Of a DNA stretch of 64,000 bases, positions 44,877 to 64,000 are shown piece by piece. Each line of letters starts with the position of its first letter. Position 1 is the first letter of the stretch. Origin of the DNA: Vermamoeba vermiformis. Its lineage: Eukaryota. The notes under the pieces are model-generated. The model saw only the letters and a program-made list of their open reading frames with translations. It ran no database searches and was not told the DNA's origin. The stretch spans positions 496,001 to 560,000 of the forward strand of contig JBEWZL010000084.1 in NCBI GenBank assembly GCA_045837725.1, given 5' to 3'. A program made the translations under genes and the position numbers.

Positions 44877-46219
44877 TCAGATTCTTTTGGCATTCGCTGC
44901 TTTTTTCGTAGCCACATCCGCCCAAATATACAGAAATGAGCCGACGGCTACTAATACAGTACCGACCCAATGTTGAATAGTAAAATCGAGTTGGGAATTT
45001 ACTATGCTGAGAATAAGACTCAAAAATTTTCGTGCTGTAGTAATAAAGATGCACGTCAATGTTCCTAAACTCGCCGTGATCTGTAAGCTTCAAATTGCCA
45101 AATTAGGGGGTGAAAGGTAACGTACCTGTCACATGGTGCACGCCATTAATACAGAAATATTGAGTAATACAATTGATGAAGATGTAGATCCACACTGCCA
45201 ATTTTATTCACACAAATCTCGGTTGAGAAATAATCGCTAGTGAAGCGAGTCTCTTGAGAATAGAATCACAAATTGTTGGTGATCGCTCTTCACAAAATCT
45301 CTGTCGAGAGTATTCGTAATGCTTGCAGATGTAAATTAAAAATACAATTTATTATCACACGTAATGTGAACAATAAATTCTTTTCTTCCCCTTGGTCTTT
45401 CTTCACTAATGCGGCACCCTATAAAAATTACAATTTAATTTATGGATCAAAGAAATTAAGTTTAAAATCTTACGTTTAGTTTATTTTTGTGGCAAGAATA
45501 TCCAGACCTAATATCGAATTATTGGTTAGTAAAACTAGAATTTTTTAGGTTCGAAACTTACCAAAAATATTCATATCCGCAACTTAATAGTGGAGAGTTG
45601 TGTTTTCTATTCGTAAAAAAATTATTATAACATGAGGGTTATTAATAATTAATTGAAGAAGGGCACGTGAGGAATTGTACTATTTATTTTATTAAAAAAC
45701 TTAAACAAAAATGCCGAACACTATTTAATGGGTCGCACCATGTCGGTGAGAATTTGTGAAAAAAATGAAATCTCAAAATAGGCACGTTGTGCCTATTTTT
45801 TCTCTCAGAGAGAATTTGTGAAAAAAATGAAATTTCAAAATTGGCACAACGTGCCGATTTTTTCTCTCAGCTGAGACTTTGTGAGTTGCATCGCAATGCC
45901 AAAACCGAGATAAATCTCGGTTGAGACAAAGTTTGCAGGATTCACAACTCGTGATCGAAGACTCAACCGAGATTTGCGTGAATAAAATTGGTAGTGCACG
46001 CGATTGGGACAGCAAGCGAGAGAATTGAAACTGGATCTGATGCAGTCCAAACCTTCATAACTCGGACTATACACGGTATTAACTATACGTAACGTAATCT
46101 TCAACTTACTTGATTCGTTTCCAAAGAGCATGAACATCGGCAAAGGCAGCAGATGTGTATAAAACTCCATTTCTTTGGGATGGTTGCCATACTTCTCGTT
46201 TGCTTGACCTTGCCATCTC
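44877..46219 (-). pseudogene. 3' part of an SLC35B4/YEA4-like UDP-sugar transporter gene, interrupted and 5'-truncated by CACTA-type elements
   Basis: KYGNHPKEMEFYTHLLPLP, AWIYIFINCITQYFCINGV (once the insertion is removed) and TTARKFLSLILSI...HWVGTVLVAVGSFLY match the SLC35B4 C-terminal half. Confidence 0.8.
45193..45996. mobile_element. Non-autonomous CACTA/EnSpm-type element (MITE)
   Basis: About 35-bp TIRs CACTGCCAATTTTATTCACACAAATCTCGGTTGAG ... CTCAACCGAGATTTGCGTGAATAAAATTGGTAGTG; 2-bp CA duplication on both flanks; subterminal repeats. Confidence 0.85.
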
Positions 46220-47113
46220 CGCTCCATTCTTACTCACTCAAATCTCGGTTGGGAATTAATCTCATGTGAAGCGAGTCTCGTGAGAAGAAAATCTCAAAGC
46301 ATTTGTGATAATTCACAAAATCACAACTGAGAGTAATCAAGTAATAGTAACGCACATACACCAACAATTAAAAAACTTGAGTTTATTTATTAATTGTTGT
46401 ATTACCAATATGGTACATTGCTCCTTCCTCATTGTAGTGCATTCCTTACCCTTGTGTAAAATATTAGAAAATTATTTTCAGATTGTGGCAAGTAATTTTT
46501 AAAAAATTACCTAAATATTCATCTTATGGGGCAGAAGTACATTGGATATCCTTACCTATATTATGCAATTACTTAACAATTTAATCACGTACTTAAAAAA
46601 ATTAAAACTTACATCCGTTCATCACATCCCAGGAAGCAAAGTGTTGCGTAAGAGTCTAGCATTCAAAAATTACTATATAATATAATATCAATTAATTTTA
46701 AGCACATAAGAAGCTTGTGGCTCGTGAGGAATTGTATTGCTTTATTTTAATAACTAACAGGAATAGTGTGACAAGCTATTTTAACGGTTAAAGTTATCTC
46801 AACTGAGAATATGTGATAAATATGAAATTTCTATGTCAGGCAGTGCCGACTGTTTGAGAGTTAGTGATAATTCTCAACCGAGGTTTTGTGATGGATTTGT
46901 CGCATTTCACAGCTTGCGACTGCTATCTCTACTGAGAAAATGTGATTTGAGATTTTGTGAGAATTCTCAGGTGTGATTCTCTGTGTGTGTTACATCACGA
47001 AGCAAAACCGAGATAAATCTTGGTTGAGACAGAATTATGTGCAATTCACGACTTGTGATTTGCACCTCAACCGAGATTTGTGTGAGTAAAAACGGCCAAA
47101 AAATGGCCCAGTG
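46220..47113. mobile_element. Second, more diverged copy of the same CACTA-type element
   Basis: Same end motifs (TACTCACTCAAATCTCGGTTG ... CTCAACCGAGATTTGTGTGAGTAAAA...CAGTG) and shared internal blocks such as CGTGAGGAATTGTA. A further end fragment lies at about 48345-48415. Confidence 0.7.
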
Positions 47114-48424
47114 AGTATCTGGTGGACTATTAGGCACTAAAATTTAAATATGGTACTTCCTTCTTTTTATATAGCTACAGACCAACGAGGAAAGAGATGA
47201 GAAAGCTGCCAGATTGAAACTCTCTCACAAATGGCTGGCTGGCTGACTACTCACTCAGCCAGCCAAAATCGAATGCTTTATTGACACCAGCAGAAACAAT
47301 GAAAAATATTAGCGTCATTTTGAGATATCCTCAAAAAGGAATCTATGATGACATGTTAGCACGGATCACGGATCAAGTTTGTGAATCACTTCTCCGATCC
47401 AGATGTGCCGATAAGATTAATATTTTGAATTACCATGGTTTTAAATGTGAAGTTTTTCAATCAAATTGGTGAAAAGCTGAAAGTAAGCAGGTTAGGGTTG
47501 CGGCAAATTGAAAAAATGTTAGCATAGGCACAGTTCCAGAGTCAATCCTAATGATAAATGTTATTAATAATTACTGTGTACTTTAAAAGGAGCTCTAGTA
47601 TGTTATTGCTAATACATCCACCGAGTAATGAAAAATTAAGTATAGTACTGAACCTCCCAACCCACTGGCTAAGGGTTGCTTAGTGTTAGTAATTGGTTAT
47701 TCATGCTTCACACTATTTTTTCAGTAATCACTTAGCATAACAATGGAGTTTAATAGGTCATGCTAGCTAGCTACTGTAGTTTACTTTAGTTTCAATTTAT
47801 GATTATTCAATGCCTTGTGGTGATTCGTTTGGCAGGGATGAAAAACAATAAAATAAATATTCATTCACCTCAATCACACAAGTTGTGAGCAAGAAAGGCT
47901 GGGTTATTTCAGGGTAAATATTCACGAGAGAATATATTTGAAAGTTAGTTAATTGTACAATTATAGAGGACTATGCTGGGGCTCCAGAGGCGGAGGATCG
48001 AGAACCACTACCTGTTTCCTACTACAGTTTATACTTAATTTTATCAATATTATTATTCTTTTTATTAACTTTATTATTCCACTTGTAGATCTTGCATCTT
48101 CACAGGTGCTCTGTTGGATGTGCTTGTATATGTTTGATATGGGAGGTCAGTTGTGGAGATATGGCGCATAAATTAAAAAGAAACCAGTTTACTTAACACT
48201 AGAATGACTTCCAATTGGAGGCAAGATAAATGAAAAGCCAATATCTATAATTGTGCAACTTTCATGAACGGTGACTTTTCATGAAAATATTAAATTTTAT
48301 TAAAATTACATAGTAATTCTCAATTTATGAACAAGACTCAGTACCAATCTTATTCACACAAATCTCAAGTTGAGACACCAATCACAAGTTGTGAATTGCA
48401 CATATTTCTGTTCTAACACTCTAT

Positions 48425-48762
48425 TGTAAGCTGCTGGACTGCCAATCTACTGTAATGAACTATCAAAAGCATTCAATAGAACCCTTGGTGATAATTATTC
48501 TCATTGGTTGAGATTTTGTAATGGGGCTTTTTTTGAGCCTGAATTTTTAATTTTGGATCTGTACACCCAAAAACAAGCATTCAAACCTTCAGAAAAAATG
48601 ATATCAGCATCAAGCTATCCTGGGACAATAGAAACATCTATAACAATAAGAAGAAAAATGAATCAGTGGTTTTCAGTTTTCCAAATGTGGCCAAATCTCA
48701 AAACTCTTCCTAAGTTCATGAATTGTTCACATCCACGGATTGGATGGCATTAATTGCTGAAC
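48425..48762 (+). pseudogene. Internally deleted fragment of the RAG1/Transib-like transposase
   Basis: Near-identical to about 62470-62775 plus 62905-62945 (shared GAGATTTTGTAATGGGGCTTTTTTTGAGCCTG and GTTCACATCCACGGATTGGATGGCATTAATTGC). Confidence 0.8.
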
Positions 48763-48963
48763 TCAATTACTATTATTTTTGCTCAGTCATTATCATTCAT
48801 GAGTGGCAAGATCAGGGATAACTTTCTTCGGGCTAGTCTTGAGCGGAGTTACTGAAAGGATAGCACAGTATTTGTCTAATTTTGAAAGTCAACTGTAATG
48901 CAAAAAAAGAGTATGTTTTATGTTTAAGATAATAAATTAATTAATTACCATTGAATTACACAA

Positions 48964-50469
48964 CTAATTAGTGGCAAATGTTGGTGCCACACTTTGCAGG
49001 TACTCCCATACAGACAATTGGCCATATTTTGCTGTCTGATAAAATTGCTTTACCAAGTCAGATTGGTCTTCTTCAAAGGAAGCCCCAATATCCATTAAAT
49101 GAGCAATTATAGCACGGTTGACTTCTCCAATTGTGTTAGCAAATGAGTATGGGAGCAAGGTATAGGCCATTACATCATACTGTCGAGTGAAATTGGGAGT
49201 GCTTTCTGCTAGCTGAACATCCTTTATCTTAATCTGCCCAAAATTTGGATCTTTAATAGCTTTATGAACTTCATTAGCCACTTGCTTGGACATTGCTTGG
49301 ACTGCTGCACACTCAGTTTGAAGAGTAGGCACAATGCTTGAGTGTATGCTTTCAGTCCACCTTGGAGAATTCTCAATAAAATCTACTAATGAGCACACAG
49401 TATGGAAGCCTGAGTTTAAACCTTGTCCCAGAATGGGTTGGGTGGCAGTAGCAGCATCTCCTTTAATAGAAATAAACTTGTTAATACTAAAATGCAGTAT
49501 TTCAAGGGGAATTACCAATTAGAAGTATTTTTCCGAATCCCCATGGGTCACACTTTATATCAAGCATTGGCCATCCTTGCTCCTCCCATCCTCTATTTTG
49601 CACAGCCTCGTCAAGAAGTTTTTTGTAAGAATCAAACATAGGATAGTCTGAGATTATATTTTGAACCAAGGAATTAATATTAACAGAATTCCTTTCATAT
49701 ATCATGGTAGTTCTAAGAATGAACTCATCTCCAGCTTTTCCTGGCAGTCCCAAAACACTGTAATCCTTTCCCACCCAGTAGTTGACCGCATCCATTGGAG
49801 TTCCATCTGGGATTGGCAAAGCTAATGAGATATATGATTGCTCAGAAAATTGAACCGACACATTGAAGTAAGGCCTGCAAGTTTTAGAATAGTATACAAC
49901 ACAATATGTAATTCTACCTTTTTTGCATCAATCTCCTTGTCTTGGAGTATGCTCCATCAGCAGAAAAAACAAACTGAGGGTGGAGCACAGTGCAGTTTTT
50001 CCCTTCTATGATCTCCACAATACATGGAGAGAATGAAGGTATCTTAACCTTGGCTCCAAAAGTGAATTTAACCCCAAGTTCCTTTCCCTTTTCAAACAAA
50101 GCTGCAACTATGGTGGCTCTCTCCATTGAGTACATAACTCCTCCTTTTGTGGAATAGGGATACTTTTGTGTTGGTTTATCTGCAATATGATTTATTGATG
50201 TTACTTTTACTCTAGAACAACTTACCAGAATAATGAGTTGCTCTGTGACTTAGTGGATGTGCATGTGCCTGCAGATCTTGCCATATCCCAACCATTTCCA
50301 AAGCAGTCTTTCCTTTATCAGATAGAGTAATACCTGTCGAAACAGCTGCCAATTTCAGCCTCTCTCTCTTCTCAATCACATGAGGCTTCAATCCAGCCAG
50401 AGCCAATTTGATTGCTAGGAATAATCCAACAGGTCCAGCTCCAAGCACAACAATTGTATCTTCTTCCAT
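48964..50469 (-). CDS. FAD-dependent aromatic monooxygenase, kynurenine 3-monooxygenase-like; four exons
   Basis: GAGPVG Rossmann motif, ADGAYSKTR (DG motif) and LIG|DAATATQPILGQGLNSGF (GD motif); three GT-AG introns. Confidence 0.85.
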
Positions 50470-50532
50470 AACAGTGCTGTAGCTGCTATTTTAAAAGTAA
50501 AAGTCAGATTATGTAATGACTTAATAGATATC

Positions 50533-50975
50533 CAAGACTATCACATCCAAAAAAATAATGAAAAAATAAACAAAAATTAACCACCCATCCAAATAATTCA
50601 TTCAACTCAGGATATTGACTTCTATTAAGGTATTAAGTTGGTATAAGCAAAGGCTGTATTTTACAATCAGTTAGTAAGCTATCAAATATTTAGTTGGTAA
50701 GTTGCTTTTTCACATCTGCTGATTTGAGCCAAGTGCTAAGAGGTATTATAAAATCCATTTTAGTTGAGAAGGGGCATATTTGGGATACTCCAAGTCACCA
50801 GCATTGTCTTCTGATCATATAAATCTATAATGAAGGGGCAAAGTGCCTTCTGGAGCCAGATATCTTTTGGCTGAGCAGATTGAAACAATTCTCAAAGAGT
50901 TGAAGGAAGTTGTGCAACAAGTCAATGACACGATTAAATAAGTTTTTATTTATATTTTTGGGTGTGATATTCTTG
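50533..50975. mobile_element. Short non-autonomous element bounded by inverted CACA(T/C)CCAAAAA ends
   Basis: Left end CAAGACTAT-CACATCCAAAAAAATAATG, right end TTTTTGGGTGTG-ATATTCTTG. About the first 160 bp are repeated at 54470-54632; an internal block is repeated at about 52635-52690. Confidence 0.7.
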
Positions 50976-51009
50976 ATTATTCAATTCCACTTCTGCTGTG
51001 GCCAATGGC

Positions 51010-52101
51010 TCAGGCATCATTTAATCTGGAACAAAACTCTCCAGAGATATATGTTGTTAGTTCTTCTGCTTGCCCTTTAATACAAAATGATGTGACAGTT
51101 TGGATTCCTGCTCTGTCTTGCAAATTTCTGTAAAAGCCAAATTTCTGAAGCATATTTTTGTAGGATGATACATTGCCAATAAACTTCTTTTTCTCCATAA
51201 ATGTTTGAGTGCATTCAGCTAAAAGACTATCATTCAAGTAGTAAAAACGCAATGGAAAGTGCAATTTGATGTTTTGGAGACATTTCTTATCAATAGAGTA
51301 AACTAGTGTAACTATTAGACCAGTAGCAGAAACAGTGTCTGATAATGTTCTTGGCGTGTTGCACATGTTATTACAACAAAATTCTTGCCAAAACTCTGAG
51401 CATGTTTCTATCAATGAAGGAAATGCTTCTGCAATCAAGGCTGTCATTTTGATCGTATCCAATCCTTTTAGACGAATATAGACTTTAAGTCTAGGGTTGC
51501 TTCCCAAATCAAAAGCTAAAAAGTCTAAGTTATGGCTGTCCACGCCACATTTCTCAGTAATTGTGATAAACTCGCTTGAATTAATGCCCACTGCTGCAAA
51601 AGCATCAAGTACTTTTTCCTGTGAAGTTTTTTGGGATGGACCATTCAGTTGTGGGTTGAAGTATATTTTGTGATTATACACTCCTGGAGCCAAGTCAATA
51701 CCATACCACATAAAAAATTTTCCAGAGTCAACAGGTTCCAAGAATATTGATTGCAAGGAATCAAACAATGTCCAATTTAGTGAAGGATTGTTTTGCTTTG
51801 CCTCTTGTATGAACCTATTGGCACATTTGACAATATCACTGAAAGATCGACAGTTGCTGTCAATAGGTTCTCCAAGCATTCTTACAATTGGACGTCCTTG
51901 GGTTGAAAAGGTGATGCTAAATTCAACAGGACTGTTATCGTCAGTAATAAATGATGGCCACTGAGGCTTGGTTGAAAACTGATGGGATGCAAAAGTATTC
52001 AAAAACTGTTTGATGGCAGTATAGCACTCCTTTTTCTCTGCATCTGAATAGGCACAGAAATCTAAAAGAGTATCAAGGCAATCATACACTGCTTTGTTCA
52101 T
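51010..52101 (-). CDS. Aromatic (indole/tryptophan) prenyltransferase, DMATS family, bacterial type; intronless
   Basis: SFITDDNSPVEFSITF...VRMLGE, WYGIDL...KIYFNP, FLAFDL...RLKVY, KLHFPLRFY and TTYIS match ABBA/DMATS motifs. Confidence 0.82.
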   Translation of the reverse strand: MNKAVYDCLDTLLDFCAYSDAEKKECYTAIKQFLNTFASHQFSTKPQWPSFITDDNSPVEFSITFSTQGRPIVRMLGEPIDSNCRSFSDIVKCANRFIQEAKQNNPSLNWTLFDSLQSIFLEPVDSGKFFMWYGIDLAPGVYNHKIYFNPQLNGPSQKTSQEKVLDAFAAVGINSSEFITITEKCGVDSHNLDFLAFDLGSNPRLKVYIRLKGLDTIKMTALIAEAFPSLIETCSEFWQEFCCNNMCNTPRTLSDTVSATGLIVTLVYSIDKKCLQNIKLHFPLRFYYLNDSLLAECTQTFMEKKKFIGNVSSYKNMLQKFGFYRNLQDRAGIQTVTSFCIKGQAEELTTYISGEFCSRLNDA

Positions 52102-52848
52102 TTCAAATCTAGGCTACAAAGTTTTGGCTTAATAACAGCAAGCTGTTAAACTTAAATTTAATTGGAAATTCCAGTTAAATTAATTCCAGTTAAAAAATCA
52201 TTTTTATAGTTTGCAGATTTGATAAATAACAATTAAGTGAACCTAATCCAAAAATCCTCAACTAATTATGTTGAACAATTATTCAAATTAACCAATAATA
52301 GATCTCGGTGCGTTCTGCTGACATACATTGGAGCAATAGGCAAAGAGAGAAATTCTTCAACCAAACATTGAAAACTTTATTATTTTTTGAGCGACATAAA
52401 CCAGCATTTTCCCATCAAATAAGTCATGATTTTTCCTAATCACAACTCTTCAAATGAAAACAAAATGTGTTGCTCTTTGAAATTATCAATTAATACCTCA
52501 AGAATATCAAGATAGGCTATCCAGCACAAATTCATCAGCTTTTTTTTTCGTTTGCATACAAAATTAAACTTCACACATCCAAAGCAAATCGTATTTTGAC
52601 ATTTCTGAGTACATCTTGGCTTGAAATAATTTTTAAATCCATTTTGGTTGAGAAGGGTACATTTAAATCGATACCCCAAGCCACCAGCATTTTTTATAAA
52701 TCAAAGAAGAGGTAAAGTAATCTGAGTTGAGCTTATTATTTGGTTGGGGTTAATTTTTGTTTATTTTCATTATTTTTTGGATGTGAAAGTCTCAATCTTT
52801 AAAATCCTATGTTATTTCTCACCAATTCTTCACATTTACCTCACACCC

Positions 52849-54468
52849 ATGCTTCCGTCACTGGTAGTTGTTGAAGAGTTAAGTGGAACTCTTGGCTTGT
52901 ATGATTTAGAAGGAGTACAAAAAGGTCAAATATACATTGGAGCAAAGCCCCATGAAATTCTACTACACTACCACAAAAGCCGGTTGTTAGCTTTTGTATC
53001 AATATTTGGATTGTCTGATTATGACAGCAAAGTAGGAGATTCTGACTGCTTTATAAGTGTAATTGATATGCAACACTTTTGTGAAGTGGCTCGTTTCTCC
53101 ACCTTCAAAACTGGAGAGTTAATAGAGCACTCTCAAAAAGCTCCCCATGGCTTAGCTGTATCTATAGATGGACAGTATTTATTTTGCAACACAGAATTCA
53201 AATCAGATAAAGTTTGTCCTAGTATATTGCAATACGACCTTAGCGACATTCTTCCTTCCACAACAGTATCTTTAATCCCTCCAAAAAATATATTCACATT
53301 ACATTCTGCAAGCTCATCCCATAATTTGATCATTCACCCATCTATGCCACACATGATTTTATTGATGGCAGGTGCCCAAGGCATAGCTTTGTTTGACATT
53401 GATAAAAGCATTGTGGTTAAAACTTTTACTCCCCCTCAACCTGTTAGAGGACTGTGCCACTCACCTCAAGGCCTTCTGGTCAGTGGTTTAAACAAGTTGT
53501 ATGAAATTGATTTGGAGCTAAATCTAATCCGTGAAATTAATGGATTAAATGTTCACCAACTTATGTACTCTGAAGTATCCTCTGACGGAAAAATTATTGT
53601 TGCCCCTGCAGTTTTAAACAGCCAAGTCCTTTTGATAGACTATGTAACAGGGAAGGTAATTAATCGAGTATGCACTGGGTTAGCTCCTCTCCATGTTTCA
53701 ATAACTCCTGACTCAAAGATTGCCTTTGTTACTAATGCTTGGGACTACTGTATTACAAAAGTCAGCTTGGAAGATTTTTCAGTGGCAAACTTAAAAGTTG
53801 GAAGAGGTCCAAATGGCATAGCTAGTTGCTTTCTTCCCTCTCCTTATACGAGAAAGAAGAAACGACTGGCTTTTGTATCTTCGTTTTCTGCAAAAGACTT
53901 TGAAGATATGAAAAACACAATGGATATCCTTATGAATTTAAAATGGTGGGCAGAGACTTTGAATCAGAAAGGGGGTCTTTTACTTGAGGACAACTCTCTT
54001 CTTGTTGCATTTGAGATTGAATGGTCATTGTTTGATGATGAAGCTGATTCTCAAAGGCAAGCAGATATTATAAGATCTATTGATGGTGTATATGATGTGA
54101 TCATTATTACTAAGAGCCTCCAACAAGTACAACATAATTCAAACGTGATCTTCTTACTGGACAGTCCTGCAATCCTGCAGGTTTCTGAAGCAAAGATAAT
54201 GTTAAATGACGATGACATTTGCAGCCACTTAAAGAAAAACTCAATCAATGTAGAAGGGAATAACTATCACCAAGGGGAGTTGCATTCTCTCTCAATGTTT
54301 GACAGCTGTTTTTGGCAGAGATTTTCTTATAAAACAACAATCTTGGGACAGATTGCCTATTTAGTAGGAAATATTTTGAAGAGGTACTTTGTTTACAGAT
54401 CTACTCTACAAAAATATGTTGAACAAACATTTTTGGGCAAGTTAACTCTGGAGATTTCAAGCCAATAA
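52849..54468 (+). CDS. YVTN/YncE-like beta-propeller fused to a degenerate periplasmic-binding-protein-like C-terminal domain; intronless
   Basis: Repeats IGAKPHEI, APHGLAVSIDG, TGLAPLHVSITPDSKIAFVTN and VGRGPNGI. C-terminal WAETLNQKGGL...LFDDEADS resembles LivJ-type binding proteins. First ATG at 52849. Confidence 0.72.
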   Translation: MLPSLVVVEELSGTLGLYDLEGVQKGQIYIGAKPHEILLHYHKSRLLAFVSIFGLSDYDSKVGDSDCFISVIDMQHFCEVARFSTFKTGELIEHSQKAPHGLAVSIDGQYLFCNTEFKSDKVCPSILQYDLSDILPSTTVSLIPPKNIFTLHSASSSHNLIIHPSMPHMILLMAGAQGIALFDIDKSIVVKTFTPPQPVRGLCHSPQGLLVSGLNKLYEIDLELNLIREINGLNVHQLMYSEVSSDGKIIVAPAVLNSQVLLIDYVTGKVINRVCTGLAPLHVSITPDSKIAFVTNAWDYCITKVSLEDFSVANLKVGRGPNGIASCFLPSPYTRKKKRLAFVSSFSAKDFEDMKNTMDILMNLKWWAETLNQKGGLLLEDNSLLVAFEIEWSLFDDEADSQRQADIIRSIDGVYDVIIITKSLQQVQHNSNVIFLLDSPAILQVSEAKIMLNDDDICSHLKKNSINVEGNNYHQGELHSLSMFDSCFWQRFSYKTTILGQIAYLVGNILKRYFVYRSTLQKYVEQTFLGKLTLEISSQ

Positions 54469-54469
54469 T

Positions 54470-54835
54470 AGATATCCAAGACGATCACATCCAAAAAATA
54501 TGAAAAAATAAAAAATAATTACCCACCCATCCAAATAATAAGCCCAACTCAGGATATTGACTTCTATTAAGGTATTAAGTTGGTATAAGCAAAGGCTGTA
54601 TTTTACAATCAGTTAGTAAGCTATCAAATATTTTATTTCATTTTAAACATCTGCTGGTCCAAAATTAAAAATTCAGGCTCAAAAAAAGCCCCATTACAAA
54701 ATCTCAAACGATGAGAATAATTATCATCAAGGGGTATAGTGAATGCTTTCGCATTATGATAGATAGGAAGTCCAGCTACTTTTCTAACTCTCTGCCACTG
54801 GTTTGAGCTAAGATCTGTAAAGCTTTGGATGTCAT
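54470..54835. mobile_element. Element remnant: end repeat plus an inverted transposase fragment
   Basis: 54470-54632 is a direct copy of 50526-50691. About 54657-54832 is the reverse complement of about 62418-62600. Confidence 0.8.
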
Positions 54836-55102
54836 TTTACAACCTGTACTTGTAGATGTACGATAAAAAATTGGGGTAATTGGGTCAAAAAAGTTAGTTG
54901 GCAAATTATTACCACTTTTATAATTATTTGAAGTTGTGTTATGGCTGCAGTTGGTTCATTAGTTCAAAGCAGCAAAATTAAAAATACCCTTAAATTCATG
55001 TTAATGTGACTATTATTAACTTTCATCCAATGTCATTGAGTTTTAGGTTGCAATTTTTGAAAATTTCCAATTTTTTTTAATGGAGACTTGTGGAGATAAG
55101 GA

Positions 55103-56833
55103 ATGGGGATGATTCGAAAGCTAAAGCTCCATCAGTATTGGGCATCAGTATTTTTAATCATTGGAAAAGCAGGCACTATGCCCATTTTTTCTTTGTTGTA
55201 TGGAAAACTACTGGGCAGTCTATCTGATAGTACTCTCTTTATGCAATACATATTCTATATCGGAATGGTCAATGTGGGGAGTTTTTTTCTAGATTTTTTC
55301 TATATCTATTTAATGCAGCAAGTTGGTCCAAAAGTGGCAGCAAGACTTAAAAAACAAATAGTAAAAGAGCTTATGAAAAAAGACAGTACTTTCTTTGCAA
55401 ATAGCTCTTCAGGGGCGTTGAACAACTCTTTCTTAGCAGAGACAAATGCAGTCAAAGGATTTTGCTCTGCAGTACTTCCAGAGTTCCTACGAAACACATT
55501 TATGTTACTTTGGTATATGGGAATTGCTGCATACATAAATTATATATTCTTTGTTGTAATGTTTGTGACAAGTGGATTGACAATCACTATCTCTTTACTG
55601 ACCAGCACATTTGAGAAGCTAACATCAAGGAAAGTTGCAGAAGAAAAAAATCTAGCAAAAACTCAGGCAGAGATTACATTCAATTGGCAAGTCATTCGAG
55701 TATTTGCACGACAAAGCCATTTTAAAGCAAAGATAAAGGATCACCTACAAAGAGTGTTATCAGTGGAGCACAAGTTAGCAATCATTTTAGCAAGCTCTTC
55801 AGCACTGTCATTTGCAATATCAAATGGATCACTGTTGCTTGTGGGCTATTTTGCTTTAGATTTATACAATTCTTCCACTATCACTATATCAGATATCTAT
55901 ACTGTTTGGTCAGCAAGCTTGCTAGTAGCATTGCATTCAAAAATTATAGCTCAAAGAGTGAATGAGGTCAAAGATACTGTGGCAGTACTTAGAAGTATGG
56001 AAAGAACCATAAGCTTTGGAAAAAGCCATTATGTTGACATTCCCCCAACCAACTATGACCTATCCTCTCCTACTGTTGAATTCAACAATGTCTCTTTTAC
56101 TTACCCGAATTCTTCAAAGGCAGCAATCTCAAACATCAATATTGTATGTTCTGCAAATACAATGACTGCTTTGGTAGGTGCTTCAGGATCGGGTAAATCA
56201 ACATCCTTATCTCTGCTACTCAAATTACACCAAAATTATGAGGGTAGAATATCTGTAAACGGAGTCAATTTGCAGGACATCAGTTCTTCCAATTACTATG
56301 AATCCATTGGTTATGTTGCACAAGATGTGAGGCTATTTTATGGAACCATTGAGGAAAATATTCGATTTGGGATTGACAATTGCTCAATATATGAAGTAGA
56401 AGAAGCTGCTCGTAGGGCCAATATTCATGATTTTATTATGCACTTACCTGAAGGTTACAAAACTATTATTGGTGAGCAAGGAGTTAACCTTAGTGGAGGT
56501 CAAAAGCAACGTATGGCTATAGCAAGAGCTTTGATACGAAATCCTAAAATTTTGATATTTGACGAGGCAACTAGTGCACTTGACTCCACATCTGAAACTA
56601 TGATACAAAAATCCATTGAAACTCTCAGTACCAGCATAACTGTAATTGTTGTTGCTCACCGTTTAAGCACTATCATTAATGCTACCAAAATTTATGTGTT
56701 TAGTGAAGGCAGAATAGTAGAAGAAGGGAATTATCAAAATTTGATTGCCCGCAATGGATTCTTTACCTCTATGGTGACTGCCCAGCAACTGGAAAAGGAA
56801 GACCAGACTAGACAGAGGAGTTACACTTCATAA
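55103..56833 (+). CDS. ABC half-transporter (ABCB/MsbA-like exporter, TMD plus NBD); intronless
   Basis: Walker A GASGSGKST, Q-loop YVAQD, signature LSGGQKQR, Walker B ILIFDEATSALD, AHRLST; hydrophobic N-terminal half. Confidence 0.92.
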   Translation: MGMIRKLKLHQYWASVFLIIGKAGTMPIFSLLYGKLLGSLSDSTLFMQYIFYIGMVNVGSFFLDFFYIYLMQQVGPKVAARLKKQIVKELMKKDSTFFANSSSGALNNSFLAETNAVKGFCSAVLPEFLRNTFMLLWYMGIAAYINYIFFVVMFVTSGLTITISLLTSTFEKLTSRKVAEEKNLAKTQAEITFNWQVIRVFARQSHFKAKIKDHLQRVLSVEHKLAIILASSSALSFAISNGSLLLVGYFALDLYNSSTITISDIYTVWSASLLVALHSKIIAQRVNEVKDTVAVLRSMERTISFGKSHYVDIPPTNYDLSSPTVEFNNVSFTYPNSSKAAISNINIVCSANTMTALVGASGSGKSTSLSLLLKLHQNYEGRISVNGVNLQDISSSNYYESIGYVAQDVRLFYGTIEENIRFGIDNCSIYEVEEAARRANIHDFIMHLPEGYKTIIGEQGVNLSGGQKQRMAIARALIRNPKILIFDEATSALDSTSETMIQKSIETLSTSITVIVVAHRLSTIINATKIYVFSEGRIVEEGNYQNLIARNGFFTSMVTAQQLEKEDQTRQRSYTS

Positions 56834-56855
56834 AAACTTTAACTTCTAATGTTTA

Positions 56856-57245
56856 TTATGACATTTCTACAGAAGAGCTCTCTCGGGTGGTGTAAGACAC
56901 TATTCCACCTGCCACTCTTTGTTGTTTAAATAAAGCAACAGCTACCAAAATTACAATAAAGCCTCCTATGACACCATAAATTACTATTACTGCAATTGTT
57001 TGAGGTAGAGGATATGTTTGCACCAAAATAGCAGATTTATCACCAGCACACATTTGGGATGTGCACAATACAGGCCATATTTTAGTCTTTGCATAACAGT
57101 CATCATCAGTAGCACAGGGGACACATGTTCCACCATTACAAACTGGAAGGGTTAATGGACAGTCTTCTAATGTTTGACAAGGTAATTGAAGGTAAACCAA
57201 AGAGAGGCAGGAAAAAAATATGATTATTGACAATAGAGTTTGCAT
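56856..57245 (-). CDS. Small single-pass membrane protein with a Cys-rich ectodomain
   Basis: Signal peptide, CQTLEDCP...CNGGTCVPCATDDDC, one TM helix. Confidence 0.65.
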   Translation of the reverse strand: MQTLLSIIIFFSCLSLVYLQLPCQTLEDCPLTLPVCNGGTCVPCATDDDCYAKTKIWPVLCTSQMCAGDKSAILVQTYPLPQTIAVIVIYGVIGGFIVILVAVALFKQQRVAGGIVSYTTRESSSVEMS

Positions 57246-57426
57246 GCTGATTTTATTAGTTGCTTTCTATTCCAAACAAAAAATATATTCAAATAAGAGT
57301 GCTTTGCTGAAAGGAAAGAAAATGGAAATTTGTGGATTTTTTTTTTGATTTTTATTTTTAAGATGATTTTTATTTGCCTTTTTAATTAGCCTTTTTAATT
57401 AGCCTAAATTCAAGTGAACAACAACA

Positions 57427-58914
57427 ATGAAGTGTCTTTTTTGGTTGAGTTTTTTTCTCCCTTCAGTTTTGGGGGTAATGATTATCTCTCAGCCCCAAAA
57501 CATATCTGGTGTTTATCCGTTTGTAAAACTGACATTTGCAAACACTCCTGCCGAAATTAATGTGCCGCCACAAATTCCTCTGAAAGGCAAGCTTACGCTG
57601 CCTGGACCTCTTGCTTATGGAAATATTCTTCTGCTGCCCAGAGCTGGAGGATCATTTACAGCAGTGATTAGTGAAATGATATACACATTTCTGCCAAGAG
57701 CTATTGTAATTGTTCCTAGCTCTCCATCCGAACCTGGAATTGAAGAATTCTTCATGGATGATTATGAAGAAACAAAAAAATGGCAAATACCCATTGGAAC
57801 AATGGGGTTTTTCCCCGGCATCTCTTTATTGCAGTCAGGCTTGCTTGATAATGGTACTGCTGATGTAGAGCTTGTATTTGGTATGTGAACACACCACAAA
57901 ATTGTTGCTAACCAGTTCCAGATGAGAATGGTTGGCATTCGTTTGCCTACAATCCTGCTTGGATTGTATTGTACACACTAGTCTCCATTGGAGCACTTGT
58001 TGCCTGGGCTATCTCCATCTCAAGATTTGTGGCTTTTGTAAAAGCATCCGGTTTTCAGCTCTCACTAGCACAGGTTACCTTGCTTATACAAATGATTATA
58101 AACCCAAGTAAGTATGAAATTTTTGCCCTTTACTTTACTAATCCTATTTTTCAGCTCTTTTTTACTGGTGGGTTACTGGCGCAGGTTATTCAATTCCTGC
58201 CCTACAGTTCCAAGTTCAAACGTTTATTGAACAGTCCATACCTTCTGGAGCAGTGACAATTTGCATTTTTTTGTCTGCATTTTTCTGGTAAGTACATCCC
58301 TTAGTGAAATAATCCCTCTAACTTTTGCCAGGCATGAACTGATTACAATGTCTAAAATTCGAGTTACTACATTCATTGTTGGACTAAAAATACCAGCTCT
58401 TATTATTGTTTGTTTGGTGATGTTTCTTTTATACGCAGTTAGTGTGGCGTTTGCAACTTTAAATGCTATCAGTTTAGAATCACTATATAGCCTTTCAAGG
58501 TTGAAGATTTCTGTTGATCTGGCTATTAATGGAGTCGCCTTCATCTATTATTCCATTATTGGAAGTTTGGTGCTCATTCGAGTACGCAAGTCTCCTGGAG
58601 AAAGAACTGCAAAACAAGTCAAAAAGGTAGGGTCTTCCTGCACTGCTCTTTGCTAAAATCTCCCACAGACGACTGTTCGATTTCTGCTGGTGGCCATCAC
58701 CATTCTTCTCCGCATCACAGGACTTGCCTTCCATTTGGATGAAATAATGTTCAAACAAACTGGAACATACTTTATTCTGACAGCAGCAGCTTTTCGAATG
58801 TCTTATTGGCTAATGTTTTTCTCAATGGTTGCAACAAATATCTTTTTGTGCTTAGGGTTCAGAACGCCAGAAAAAGTTACAGGTTCTTCAAGAGCAACAA
58901 AAACTTCTAATTAA
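57427..58914 (+). CDS. Multi-pass membrane protein with a signal peptide, a PA-like ectodomain and about seven TM helices; about five exons
   Basis: ORF pieces linked by GT-AG introns starting at about 57881, 58108, 58269 and 58627; hydrophobic helices throughout the C-terminal part. Confidence 0.6.
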
Positions 58915-59243
58915 TAAAGTCCCTTTCATTCTTTTTTCCAGCCTGTTTAAAGCATCATCCAATTTCCTTGGCAATTGCTTCACCCTCGGTTAGATATGTC
59001 AAAGGAGTAGCAGGTAAGGCAATTGACTGCAATTTAAATAACATCAATACATTGGTAACCGCCAAATATTGGCAGCAACATGATAACCTTTCAGATCCAA
59101 AAATTGCACACTTACATCCATCAAATTTGAGTTCCATTATCATTTTTGGTTAGAAATAAGGCAGATCTACGTTCAATCTTGTCTCCTTTTTATTTAATTT
59201 CAAAAATGGTTGTAAACAGTACAACTATTACTGTTTACTATGG

Positions 59244-60375
59244 TTAACTAACAGGAGACAACAGCAAACTTTGAATGTTGAAGATCCACTTCGAAACAAA
59301 ACTGTGTACAAGTGGAATGTCCTTCATAGTATATGAACCTAAATCATATGATTAGACTAAGCAGTTAGCTGAAACTTACAATACAGAGGAAAAGACGCTA
59401 TAAGCTCCACTGCCTCATTAAAATCTTGAAGTGCAACTTTCCAAGCATATTCAACTCCTTGCTTAGCCAAGGAGGATAAATACAATCTAATGAAATTAGA
59501 GTTAACAGACACTACAATGCATTACATACTGGAGCAAGGGCATAATTTCTTCAGCTGAACTTTTTTGGGTTGAGAGGAAAAATGCAACATCTTCCATGGG
59601 ATTACCATTATGAATATATTGCAAGTCAATTAAGCGTATCAACTCTTTTTCAGTGTCAAAAAAGATGTTGCTAGTGTGCAAGTCTCCATGCACAACAGTA
59701 CGAGTTTGTCTAAAGGCTGATGAAATCCCTATCTTTTGACAATTAACTAATCAAGAACCAACACCTTACCTTATGGACTTGTTGGACTTTTTTATCATAA
59801 TGAAGATAACCAGAAGAGAATGTTGGATCTTTTTCCCACAACGCTTGCATTTTAGTTATAAGTTCTTCAATCAAACTTGGACCTTTAACCATCTCCAAAC
59901 CTCCCCAATTCCCTACAGGGTTAGTTAGATAGTTTCTCCACTAAAGTATCCATACGAGAGTGAAATTCAGCAATAGAGCATATCAGGACTTCCTCCTCTT
60001 TAATGGAAGGGGAATAGTTAAGTTTGCTTCCTGAATACATTGAAAGGTCTTCAAGTAGAATCAAGTATTCATTAGGGGATGAAACTTTTGTTCCAAAGCA
60101 TTTTGGAAACAACACCCTTCTTGTCTCCAACAAATTTGCATTCCTTTTTGCATATTGTGTTACTATATTTAGACATAAAATACCAACCGGTAGCTTTTTA
60201 TCTCTGAATCCAATAATTCAGGAGGAGCACTAGCTTTTTTCAAAATTAACGTCTTTTCCTTTCCTTCCAGACACAAAGAAATTTTGTATGCCTTGCTGAA
60301 TGCTCCAGAACCAATCTCAGCAATGCAAAACTGGGAAATATTGTAGCCAAACAGATCTAATAATATTTGCTCCAT
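59244..60375 (-). CDS. Small-molecule kinase of the APH/choline/ecdysteroid-kinase-like phosphotransferase family; multi-exon
   Basis: EIGSGAFSKAYK, LILKK, EIKSY, ILLEDL, IAEFH, Brenner motif VVHGDLHTSNIFF, and LIDLQ...GNPMEDVAFFL. Confidence 0.82.
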
Positions 60376-60437
60376 TCCATTCAAAAACTAACAAAAATAC
60401 GTGAGTGAGTCAAACAAATTACTGCAGTTATTTAGTG

Positions 60438-60659
60438 CAAGAATTCACACATCCAAAAAATCAATCAATAATGAAAAAATAAATAATAACTTCCTCCCTA
60501 GAGGAGTTGCTCCAGCTCATTCTGTTACCATAAATAACGCGGAGATCAATACTACTAGGGTTTGGGACTCAAAGAAGTGCAATGAATGGTTGAACAACTC
60601 ATTGAGTGCTTGAATGGCAACAAGAAAGAATAATAATATTTAGTTTATTCTGGGATGTT
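60438..60659. mobile_element. Miniature internally deleted derivative of the RAG-like element
   Basis: Starts at the CACATCCAAAAAA end motif. About 60500-60640 is the reverse complement of 61545-61640 joined to 61240-61283. Confidence 0.7.
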
Positions 60660-61318
60660 ACCAACAGCAAATTTATTCCTGTGGCACAACTGGGTCAAAT
60701 TAAAAATGGAGTGAATGGCTCTTACTTTCAGGTTAGGAGAACTTTGCTGAGTCCTTGTGGAGGTTTGCATTTATTTTTGTTACAAACTAACTGTGTTGAA
60801 ATCTAGGAGGCAAAAATTATCTTGTGCAGGGTGTCTCCTACATAATTGTTCAGCTGTCTGCTTTCACATTTTAATATCAAACTGTGATCCTGATACTGTG
60901 AGTATTCTGAAAAATGTAACATTGCACATGTAGGACTCCTGAGTCCCTGGCAACAAATTTCTAATTTTTGTTGAAGCAAAAGTCTGTCAACATAGGAAGT
61001 GTGTGGGCTGACTTTGGCTGCTATACAAAAAATTTTGCTGGATTTACCTAGGTTAACTTGCCTCAATTTACGGAGCTTAGCATTGCTGGTTTTTTTCTTC
61101 CAATGGGCCTCATTCCATAAAGCATCAAAATAGCTTCCAAAATTGGCAAGACTACTGAACAATACTATCACATCCAAAAAAATGAATAAAAAATTTATTT
61201 AAATATTGAACACACTCTTAAAAATATAACGAGCACAAATATTATTATTCTTTCTTGTTGCCATTCAAGCACTCAATGAGTTGAAGTGTGTAGTCCTTGT
61301 CTTGTCTTACAATCTCCT

Positions 61319-62141
61319 TCAACTCTTTGAGAATTGTTTCGATGCCATCCATTTCTTCATCAAACCAAGCACTTCCATTTGGTTATCTTTTGAAGATTTC
61401 AACATATTAAGCATCATAGTTTCAATATCCACCACCTCCTGACGATGGAGACCCTTTTTTGGAGAGGGAGGATTTTTTAAGGTTGTTGGATCTGGCTTCA
61501 CTTCAGTCACTTCGCTCTTAATTTTTTTCTTTCCATCAAGGTAGTTGTTCAACCATTCATTGCACTTCTTTGAGTCCCAAACCCTAGTAGTATCGATTTC
61601 TACAATGTTTATGGTAACAGAATGAGTAGGAGCAAGTCCAGGATCAGATTTGAGGTTGACAATTTTAACATTTGCACGGGAGCCGTTTGAAGTCCTGTAG
61701 ATAGCTGTAACAGTCCACCAAACATCAGAAGCCTTCAGATCCTCACTCGCATGCCAGGGGTAAGTTTAGTTTGTGTGTTGGTGGCTACATCAGTGAAGGT
61801 AATTGACTCGTAAAAATCCCGATGAATTTTTTTTGCTCCAAGGTCAATTGATTGGTTGGCATAAACACATTGCTCCACCTTTTTCTTCTTTGGTAATTTC
61901 TCTTTTGCCTTGGTTGGATTTTTTTGCTCACTTGCAACATTTTGTTGGATTCGACTTCAGATGAGCATGTTCAGCCATTATTTGGCTTGGATCAATAGGG
62001 CCTTCATCAACATCGAGGCAAAGAATTTCATTAAGTTTTTTGGGTGACTCTGCAGGTTTTTCTATGTTGTTGTTAGGTGCTGAAGCTCCTTTCTTTGGTC
62101 TTCCTTTTTTGGATGCTGATCAGATGGCTATTTTTTTCCAT
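61319..62141 (-). pseudogene. Decayed accessory ORF of the RAG-like element, with an AT-hook-like KKGRPKK motif
   Basis: A mostly open minus-strand frame with in-frame stops (…ASKKGRPKK…YPWHASEDLK…WLNNYLDGKKK…KQFSKS*). It lies inside the end motif at 61169 and is divergent from the transposase. Confidence 0.5.
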
Positions 62142-62341
62142 GATACCAACAGCTAAATAAATATCTGGTGCTTCTTTTTCAAATGAAATGCATTAAGAAG
62201 GTCGAGAGCAGGAAGGATTGATGAAGATTGAAAAGAAGAAAGACTTTGAAAAATTGATCTCCGAAAGAATGTTGCTCAAAATCACCAACTAGCCGTTACA
62301 AATATGCTAGGCTGTAATAAAATGCACATTATCTTTATAGC

Positions 62342-64000
62342 GATGATGGAAGCCCCAAAAAAGCGTTATTACCCAAAAAATTATGAAAAGACTCTCATGG
62401 GAGTGTTGGAAGCTCTTGCATCCAAAGTTTTGACGGATCTTAGCTCAAATCAGTGGCAAAGTGTTAGAAAAGCAGCTGGACTTCCAATCTATCGCAACGA
62501 ACTATCAAAAGCATTCAATAGAACCCTTAGTGATAATTCTTCCATCGTTTGAGATTTTGTAATGGGGCTTTTTTTGAGCCTGAATTTTTAATTTTGGAGA
62601 TTTTGGATCTGTACACTCAAAAACAAGCATTCAAACCTCCAGAAAAAAATGATATCAGCGTCAAGCTATCCTGGGACAATAGGAACATTTATAACAACAA
62701 GAAGACAAATGGATCAGTAGTTTTTAGCTTTCCAAATGTGGCCAAATCTCAAAGCTCATCCAACGTACATGAATTGCAATTGCTGCAATTCCAGAGGACT
62801 CTAGCAACCTAAGAATGCTGTTAAGAGAAGTAGAGTTGGATGAATTCATAGCAGAATATAATAACAAAATTGTGAATGTTAATGGAAAGGAGTATAAAAT
62901 TATTTTGTTCACATCCACGGATTGGATGGCATTAATTGCCAAACTTGATGATATAGCTCTTCCAAATACAAGGAGCTTGGATGATCTCATATGCCCATTC
63001 TGTGGTTGTAACAAGCACTACTTAAGATTTGGTTGGCATGAGGAGCCATTCAAGCTTGGAGATATTTCATTGGAAATTGATGATTTTCCAAAAGCAGCTC
63101 TACCCTCTCTTTTATTAAAATCTCTGCATGGAGTTACAAATATGCTTTCAAATGTCCTTGTTCTCCTCTTTAACCTGATACCCAAGAACTCAGGCTGTCG
63201 TACTCAGTTCAAGGTACTGTAACCTGCCAAATAACTCGGAATTTTTCGCTGAATTTTCCCGAGCGGATCGCGAACGAAATCAGTTACTTGGTCGAACGAT
63301 TGATTAATTTAATTATATATATACATAATACACCAAATTTAAGGCAAGCCAGCACTAATTGGCAAAAATTTTCAAACCAAATCCAAAATTAAACTAACGC
63401 GAATCCAAAATGTACAACGAATTTTGGCTTTCCTTGGGTACAAATCAACTAAAAATAATATTTTAAACCAACTTTGCGTGGTTTTGTGCAAAGCTTACCC
63501 AAAAATCAAAACCAAATCCAACTTCAATCCAACCGAATCCAAAATAACGACCGAATTTCAATGTGATAACCAAGAATTAGGTTGTTTATGATTATAAACA
63601 CCTATTCTTGTTGTGCCAAGGCCAAAATTTTGTTGTGTATGCCTAATTTTTATCGAACTACCAACGCGCGAACCGAAAAAAAAATAAAAATTCTATTTGT
63701 GTACGGCTGGATTCGAACTTGGAAAATTTACGAGTTATTACGCAGTTTACAGTAATTCTTCAAAAAAACCTTAGTGGATGGGATGTGAAACAAAGCATGA
63801 CTCCAATGCTCATGGATCCACATTTTTGGTGTTGGATTCAGTACGAGTATTTAATAATTTTGAATACAAAGAGTGCCCCAAAAAACAAGACTTTGATGTC
63901 TTGTGAACTGCAAGACAAGCATTCATCAGTGTCTACCATGGAAACCTTTGGTGGTTGACTGTGACTCAACATTTTATGACAAATGAAGCTTTGAGATTTG
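62342..64000 (+). pseudogene. Decayed DDE transposase of the RAG1/Transib/CMC (CCHH) group; continues beyond the window
   Basis: Ordered motifs VKLSWD (first Asp), FTSTDW (second Asp), ICPFC, SLHG and TQHFMTN. It has frameshifts and stops, and a MITE insertion whose removal restores the frame (FKV-ILQK). Confidence 0.68.
63217..63752. mobile_element. Tc1/mariner-type MITE inserted into the transposase
   Basis: About 30-bp TIRs CTGTAACCTGCCAAATAACTCGGAATTTTT ... AAAATTTACGAGTTATTACGCAGTTTACAG; TA on both flanks; internal AATCCAAAA repeats. Confidence 0.88.

Follow-up and report, generated by a model that had tools for sequence, protein, structure and literature searches.

The stretch analysed here, which we call the window, is a segment of 64,000 nt of a Vermamoeba vermiformis contig (JBEWZL010000084.1, positions 496,001 to 560,000), and all the coordinates below are counted from its first letter. 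Between 48964 and 60375 it holds a compact cluster of metabolic-type genes, in whose spacers a short CAC-containing motif recurs. The original prediction had read this motif as the border signal of a RAG-like transposon, by which the genes might have been captured and joined as cassettes. We consider it very probable that the motif is part of the terminal inverted repeat (TIR) shared by an unclassified family of class II (cut-and-paste) transposons with few copies, whose remnants lie between tightly packed genes with no cassette system involved.

The main genes of the cluster and the five copies of the element are given below, with T1 to T7 indicating the element ends, MITE a miniature inverted-repeat transposable element and ORF an open reading frame.

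48964-50469, minus strand: FAD-dependent monooxygenase gene with short introns (exon 1, Pfam FAD_binding_3, 7.1e-08)
50533-50975, plus strand: MITE1, 443 bp (T1 with nonamer 50533-50541 and CAC at 50542; T2 with CAC at 50966 and nonamer 50967-50975)
51010-52101, minus strand: DMAT-type (ABBA) prenyltransferase gene, intronless, 363 aa (Pfam Trp_DMAT, 1.2e-25)
52565-52794, minus strand: MITE2, ~230 bp (left end T7, degenerate, CAC at 52574; right end T3, CAC at 52785)
52849-54468, plus strand: gene for a beta-propeller with a degenerate solute-binding domain, intronless, 539 aa
54477 to ~54900 (right limit approximate), plus strand: E3, deletion derivative (nhmmer E=1.1e-47)
55103-56833, plus strand: ABC exporter half-transporter gene, intronless, 576 aa (Pfam ABC_membrane, 8.3e-26; ABC_tran, 4.4e-31)
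59357-60375, minus strand: APH/EcKL-like kinase gene with introns (one exon, Pfam APH, 7.4e-10)
60438-60641, plus strand: E4, internally deleted copy (5' end T5 with CAC at 60448 and a 10-nt outer variant, then two ORF1 fragments including the stop)
61160-64000, minus strand, running past the window end: E5, the largest copy, decayed (T6 with nonamer 61160-61168 and CAC at 61169)
61245-62140, minus strand: ORF1 of E5, with at least 3 frame breaks
from a start at 62304-62343 to 63958, plus strand: ORF2 of E5, a decayed frame broken near 62545 and 62790 and truncated where the window ends

The motif and its repeat family

The 13-mer CACAYCCAAAAAA is present without mismatches at 50542 (+), 52785 (-, occupying 52773-52785), 54486 (+), 60448 (+) and 61169 (+), and with one mismatch at 50966 (-), hence the recurrence noticed in the original prediction is real at all the six positions it had listed. 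The five exact occurrences compare with 0.0015 expected from the base composition of the AT-rich last 20 kb. Allowing up to 2 mismatches, 16 matches were counted in the window against 5.30 +/- 2.46 expected, a number reached in 0 of 100 shuffles. A seventh, degenerate end (T7, at 52574 on the plus strand, with 2 mismatches), which was absent from that list, pairs with the end at 52785. Conversely, the "lone outer half" on the minus strand at 48834-48841, that is CAAGACTA, had been counted as part of the signal and falls outside the family: no CAC follows it, no end profile matches it, and CAAGACTA occurs four times in the window, once at 2031 in the unrelated GC-normal part, with ~0.8 occurrences expected per 20 kb, so that the match is at chance level.

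The family was defined by a BLAST search of the window on itself and by nhmmer profiles of the ends. All seven ends belong to one family, and every CAC end faces into a remnant of the same element, as had been proposed; across the 64 kb, the end profiles found no further member at E<0.1. Two types of end can be distinguished. The 5'-type ends are T1 (50542), T3 (52785, inverted), T4 (54486) and T5 (60448), while the 3'-type ends are T2 (50966, inverted) and T6 (61169). T7 (52574) keeps only ~10 nt. The 12-mer CAAGACTATCAC is found with at most 1 mismatch in four of the seven ends (T1, T2, T4 and T6) and with 3 mismatches in T3; T5 and T7 carry indel or degenerate variants of it.

MITE1 and MITE2 are short units with terminal inverted repeats, neither of which contains a long ORF. 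MITE1 lies between the ATG of the monooxygenase gene (50469) and the stop of the DMAT gene (51010), and its inverted ends (~33-35 nt) are alike over 33 nt at 85%. Its 5' 170 bp are 93.5% identical to 54466-54633, at the start of E3, and its last ~95 bp correspond to the C-terminal coding part of ORF1 and the 3' end of E5 (61340-61293 and 61202-61160). MITE2 occupies the divergent spacer between the DMAT and propeller genes, with T3 as an inverted 5'-type end carrying a nonamer variant at 52786-52794; it was recovered by the nhmmer 5'-end profile with E=3.2e-25, its segment 52792-52722 is 85.5% identical, inverted, to the MITE1 5' end, and 52629-52691 is 79% identical to the MITE1 interior.

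The other copies tie these ends to coding sequence. E3 consists of the 5' end T4 (CAC 54486) and ~165 bp, joined to the reverse complement of the ORF2 start (54658-54830 matches 62598-62420). In E4, the stretches 60503-60605 and 60595-60641 are 88% and 100% identical, both inverted, to 61639-61536 and 61283-61237 in E5. E5 reads as a 3' end, ORF1 on the minus strand, a ~190-bp central spacer and ORF2 on the plus strand. E5 and the MITEs share their ends, which links the MITEs to a larger ORF-bearing element. Moreover, one X1 contig passes directly from 50680 to 61735 of the other strand, i.e. from a 5' end to ORF1, and a second copy of the ORF1/ORF2 junction is present at ~96% identity in metagenome contigs, in which single-copy genes differ from the window by 0-1 letters; from these two observations it follows that the pieces belong to one parent element. 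The parent would have had the order 5' end, ORF2 (on the reverse strand, a candidate transposase), ~190-bp spacer, ORF1 and 3' end, and all five window copies are dead remnants, namely the two MITEs, the deletion derivatives E3 and E4, and the large copy E5, which is decayed and truncated.

Copies of the family outside the window show how far the repeat extends. The contigs of the source run (211 million letters) were aligned to the window, which gave 123 contig pieces; the counts that follow are taken from the loose ends listed, beyond which there were 77 further ones. In two contigs the similarity sets in at 50533, where the nonamer starts, with unrelated letters before it, one more carries the nonamer followed by CACATCC and preceded by unrelated letters, and two contig joints reach 50533 after 11 and 7 unrelated letters. 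A metagenome record (X4, record 12) carries the T2 junction from 50965 on. The summed contig depth is 2935 in the MITE1 bin and ~550 in unique bins, a ratio which is not to be read as a copy number. Copies of the family are thus dispersed at unrelated genomic sites, and because those found elsewhere carry CAAGACTAT and then CAC directly after unrelated DNA, the nonamer CAAGACTAT moves with the element and CAC sits 9 nt inside the inverted repeat. The view that CAC is the true terminus has to be given up. Precisely, the motif would be the inner part of a TIR of ~35 nt, which would start 9 nt outside CAC and have the consensus CAAGACTAT-CACATCCAAAAAA.

Some further observations concern the surroundings of the copies. 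E4 and E5 face each other with arms of 47 nt that are 100% complementary (60595-60641 and 61237-61283) and separated by a spacer of 595 nt. The 518 bp at 60642-61159 are themselves repeated, being ~97% identical to an X5 contig (record 21), and one X1 joint runs from 61159 to 61523 of the other strand. This suggests that the inverted pair E4/E5 is a recent rearrangement instead of two separate insertions. Two more features are related by position or sequence to ORF2:

48428-48763, plus strand: fragment of the ORF2 region, 89-96% identical to 62470-62945, abutting an end of a second MITE family at 48339-48411
63217-63752: unrelated Stowaway-like MITE, 536 bp, with ~32-nt inverted ends and TA/TA flanks (63215-63216 and 63753-63754)

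The latter is nested in ORF2; with the MITE and one TA taken out, the reading frame of ORF2 continues (62773..63222, 63647..63958). The second MITE family (45193-45996, 46219-47096 and 48339-48411) has inverted ends of ~35 nt beginning with CACTG.., which contain CACACAAATCTCGGTTGAG (5 matches against 0.00 expected), and its copies are interspersed with pieces of a UAA-type nucleotide-sugar transporter gene (45835-46233, Pfam 4e-05). Within its first copy, two tandem 62-bp units, 87% identical, occupy 45743-45866, each with a hairpin-like inverted repeat of 25 nt.

The gene cluster and the position of the copies

The base composition of the window changes at ~44 kb, from ~49% GC in the first 44 kb to ~36% GC between 44 and 64 kb. 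The AT-rich block contains every copy of the motif family, together with at least two other MITE families. Transposon remnants abound there, yet genes that look intact, in some cases with introns, are also present. The genes at 48964-50469, 57427-58914 and 59357-60375 have GT..AG introns of 40-55 nt with CTAAC-like branch sites, and the window is eukaryotic. Outside the block, a receptor gene at 36724-38751 (Pfam 7tm_3 and Bmp) has as its nearest protein cluster one composed mostly of Evosea (Amoebozoa), which we take as a lead only. In addition to the genes listed above, three of which are intronless, the cluster holds a Cys-rich ORF and a multi-exon membrane-protein gene.

The best homologues of the propeller protein are bacterial fusions of a propeller with a solute-binding domain (27-33% identity; the best, 32%, with E=1.6e-49), and for this reason the propeller gene is a candidate for horizontal acquisition. 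In the surroundings of propeller homologues at 15 bacterial loci (flanks of up to 10 kb on either side), none of 16 other cluster query pieces was matched (tblastn, E<=1e-3), hence the cluster was not inherited en bloc from those lineages; this result speaks neither for nor against a piecewise assembly. We also considered whether the propeller had been truncated by T4 and did not find this borne out, the alignment to a bacterial homologue running to near the end of both proteins, with the binding domain shortened internally.

The impression that genes are bracketed by element ends depends on the size of the spacers. As had been reported, the propeller ORF is separated from the flanking CAC trinucleotides by 63 bp (ATG 52849 to CAC 52785) and 17 bp (stop 54466-54468 to CAC 54486), which, measured to the outer edges of the ends, become 54 bp before the ATG for T3 and 8 bp past the stop for T4. 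Where no transposable element (TE) is present, however, the spacers of the cluster are as short as 22 bp (56834-56855) and 181 bp (57246-57426), and the spacer between the monooxygenase and DMAT genes would measure 63 + 34 = 97 bp without MITE1, the outer edge of T2 being 34 bp from the DMAT stop. The DMAT ATG lies 463 bp from T7. With spacers of only 22-181 bp, any insertion that is tolerated is bound to lie no more than tens of bp away from a start or stop codon, and the bracketed look of the genes follows from this. An element end is found within 100 bp at only 5 of 14 gene borders of the cluster, and none is near the ABC exporter gene, the Cys-rich ORF or the membrane-protein gene. The copies would have come to lie near genes through tolerance, purifying selection having kept only those insertions which spared the genes.

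Several points weigh against the reading of the copies as tolerated remnants of a cut-and-paste transposon. ORF2 is a putative transposase and an orphan, cut by the window end. No direct repeat of at least 4 bp was found at boundary offsets 0-25 of the two complete MITEs, copies which are old and in which decay is possible. T1 and T4 share 11 identical bases outside the nonamer (TAATAGATATC, at 50522-50532 and 54466-54476), which occurs exactly twice where 0.07 matches would be expected even with 3 mismatches allowed, and at 54466 this sequence supplies the TAA stop (then TAG) of the propeller ORF. Independent insertions leave the shared TAATAGATATC unexplained, and it requires a local duplication or a longer subfamily end; together with the 93.5% identity over 170 bp, it suggests either the duplication of an end with some of its flank or such a longer end. 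Finally, the monooxygenase, propeller and kinase genes have their ATGs 63, 54 and 62 bp downstream of the outer edges of T1, T3 and T5, respectively, each of these ends facing away from the gene, and this regularity of 54-63 bp may mean more than tolerance.

The last point is what a co-option of the ends would predict, in which the 5' ends are kept as promoter or other cis-regulatory sequence and couple the expression of the cluster. This is compatible with the remnants of a transposon as the origin of the ends. A distance of 54-63 bp leaves almost no room for a native promoter, and the three spacers are unlike each other. On the other hand, three ends with the same orientation are expected by chance in 1 case out of 4, and genes without such ends (the ABC exporter gene and the 5' side of the DMAT gene) stand in the same block. 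We regard co-option as an unlikely addition to the history of these copies.

Element boundaries and coding regions

The original prediction had also noticed that the joined flanks of the unit at 50542-50966 form a near-palindrome, and had taken it as consistent with a 2-bp AT duplication in a specific target. The near-palindrome does exist, the flanks being CAAGACTAT and ATATTCTTG, and it arises because these are the two outer arms of the inverted repeat. A target-specific transposon ending in CAC, of CMC/Mirage-like or Transib-like type, which duplicates AT and prefers the palindromic target CAAGACT..ATTCTTG, would account for the AT/AT directly outside the CAC/GTG of MITE1 (offset 0). This AT/AT, however, is automatic in an inverted repeat that reads ..TAT-CAC, and MITE2 has no AT at offset 0. 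The flanks past the nonamer are unrelated to each other; such a 16-bp palindrome would be needed at 9 or more sites, where chance would provide less than 0.1 in 211 million letters. In the window, the search for an empty palindromic site gave 1 match at 3 mismatches, against 0.82 expected by chance. The AT duplication in a palindromic target is hence not borne out.

No other duplication emerges clearly from the boundaries. In MITE1, matches of 2 bp are found at offset 0 (AT), at offsets 1 and 11 (TA) and at offset 12 (AT), and one of 3 bp at offset 16 (AAT), while in MITE2 the only match is AT (2 bp) at offset 9. Against itself, the original prediction had set the possibility that the outer sequence was simply part of a TIR with an ordinary target-site duplication (TSD). 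The first half of this was found; for the second, we saw only matches of 2-3 bp at inconsistent offsets.

The coding regions were searched through pieces of ORF1 and of ORF2 (62250-62552, 62537-62812, 62773-63222 and 63761-63955). The visible parts of both gave no Pfam family at E<=1 apart from noise, and in the PDB they matched no chain of RAG1 or Transib at E<=10. For ORF2, no homologue was present among the near-length or longer proteins of a collection of 5.8 billion. ORF1 had three weak matches at E<=0.001 among 1.84 billion representatives; two of them were discarded as repeat proteins, and the only credible relative is a protein of 214 aa (P0007), with 29% identity over residues 13-134 and itself without a Pfam family. 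In ORF1 as in P0007, the N-terminal part is beta-rich and contains a WTV..IYRT motif, and a long helix stands at the C-terminus. The structure predicted for P0007 from a 3-row alignment (mean pLDDT 57.5) is beta-rich in its N-terminal part, with a long helix, confidently predicted, at the C-terminus; it is too poor for a fold search, as is that of the ORF2 fragment (mean pLDDT 45.7).

In a language-model look-up, the nearest neighbours of the ORF2 fragment were unnamed eukaryotic clusters, at a recognition value of 2179, below the mark of 2300. Among these sub-threshold neighbours, which we take as a lead only, Plavaka makes up 45% of one cluster, Transposase_21 15%, and RAG1_RNase_H 12% of one cluster at rank 20. 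The CMC superfamily is characterized by a CAC(TA) terminus, a 2-3-bp duplication and a DDE transposase of Transposase_21/Plavaka type. The neighbours would point in this direction, whereas the terminus here is not CAC, Pfam gave no match, and the AT of MITE2 is found at offset 9 only. Taking together the boundaries and these values, we hold a target-specific CAC-ended transposon to be quite improbable.

As for the RAG family, RAG1/Transib transposons have a CAC terminus, a 5-bp TSD and a RAG1-core-like RNase H/DDE domain with zinc-binding modules, and the V(D)J recombination signal sequence (RSS) consists of a heptamer, a spacer of 12 or 23 nt and an A-rich nonamer. The ends described here resemble those of Transib, ProtoRAG and the RSS in having CAC near the end and then an A-rich stretch, and in facing away from the flanking genes. 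The analogy fails, since CAC lies 9 nt inside the repeat. Unlike in those systems, moreover, each of the seven ends matches the RSS heptamer consensus at 4 of 7 letters, and the words most similar to the nonamer consensus (4-7 of 9 letters) stand at spacers of 21, 10, 18, 22, 28, 10 and 27 nt, with no 12/23 spacing. In the two old MITEs there was no 5-bp duplication at offsets 0-25, and no RAG1-like domain was found by Pfam or PDB searches of the ORFs, ORF2 being decayed and cut. The designation of the element as RAG-like is not supported by any of these results. Among the papers listed by a literature search on Transib in Amoebozoa, none is about such an element.

In a metagenome scan, the 21-nt end gave 1 match, inside a bacterial coding region, and in viral contigs 1 match, also inside a coding region, both attributable to chance. 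With PIF/Harbinger, CACTA/En-Spm and MuDR the element has in common the two ORFs (a candidate transposase and a small accessory one) and the presence of deletion derivatives and MITEs; it differs from them in that neither ORF matches the Pfam families of these superfamilies and no TWA, 3-bp or 9-bp duplication was seen.

Cassettes, composite units and the meaning of the family

The DMAT gene lies between two inverted 5'-type ends of the same family, T1 and T3, which enclose MITE1, the gene and MITE2 and have ATC directly outside both of them. Because of this arrangement, and of the three genes that start 54-63 bp from a 5'-type end, we considered the idea of a composite unit. A gene between two inverted same-family ends recalls Pack-MULEs, composite transposons and Starships, but, unlike in composite elements, T1 and T3 belong to separate MITEs, each with its own second end. 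Agreement of the flanks over 3 bp would turn up by chance roughly once per 40-64 tries, and there were three pairings to choose from. In the contigs of the source run there was no second DMAT copy (flat depth of ~550) and no sign that the DMAT unit had ever moved. That the ends mobilise or regulate their neighbours, so that the gene group was built up or wired for co-expression by the element, appears very doubtful to us.

Cassette assembly, i.e. the capture and joining of the genes as signal-flanked units by RAG-like or integron-like recombination at CAC signals, could appeal to the propeller and DMAT genes, each placed between two ends, to the T1/T3 arrangement and to a gene order not inherited as a block from the bacterial lineages examined, but it is barely credible for a signal that is neither CAC-terminal nor laid out with a fixed spacer, whose ends are ordinary remnants of an ORF-bearing transposon with interior TE sequence, are lacking within 100 bp of most borders of the cluster and at every other gene in the 64 kb, and point both ways (5 plus, 2 minus). 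Integron cassettes carry one site each, in uniform orientation, next to a site-specific recombinase gene. Here a scan of 30 ORF pieces brought up neither a recombinase nor a RAG-like domain, so that the array does not match on this count either. No joint among the contigs of the source run shows a rearranged or excised form or skips exactly a MITE, which, given contig data, is not evidence of absence. The runs X4 and X5 (water and aquifer metagenomes) yielded only contigs of 150-250 nt of the organism, none of which bridges a MITE, and run X9 had no matching contigs.

What stands of the original prediction is, therefore, that the motif is the TIR of a transposon and that one family was inserted repeatedly between these genes. 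This situation is ordinary, in the sense that repeated MITEs of the same family in metabolite clusters are already known from Epichloë. According to a study on Epichloë festucae (PMC3227409), the 11-gene ergot-alkaloid (EAS) cluster contains 9 MITEs, 7 of which are from one family; in the same study, MITEs are somewhat enriched 5' of ORFs (357/1,077, P = 0.051) and enriched near secondary-metabolite genes (31/1,077, P = 0.016). With the EFT MITEs (PMC3227409), the likeness consists in one inverted-repeat family recurring in the spacers of a metabolite cluster, in AT-rich and repeat-rich sequence, with a bias to 5' gene regions and with degenerate parents. The difference is that those MITEs are fungal, while the host here is amoebozoan-like and the family low-copy.

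The analysis documents an unclassified low-copy DNA transposon family, with its MITEs, in a poorly studied amoebozoan-like genome, and the apparent bracketing of genes by CAC signals results here from the shortness of the intergenic spacers. It would be of interest if ORF2 represented a new transposase lineage, and likewise if the ends drove or coupled the expression of this gene group, which looks horizontally acquired. If either of these holds, the family would be relevant to the question of how genes of foreign origin come to be expressed and to form clusters in protists.

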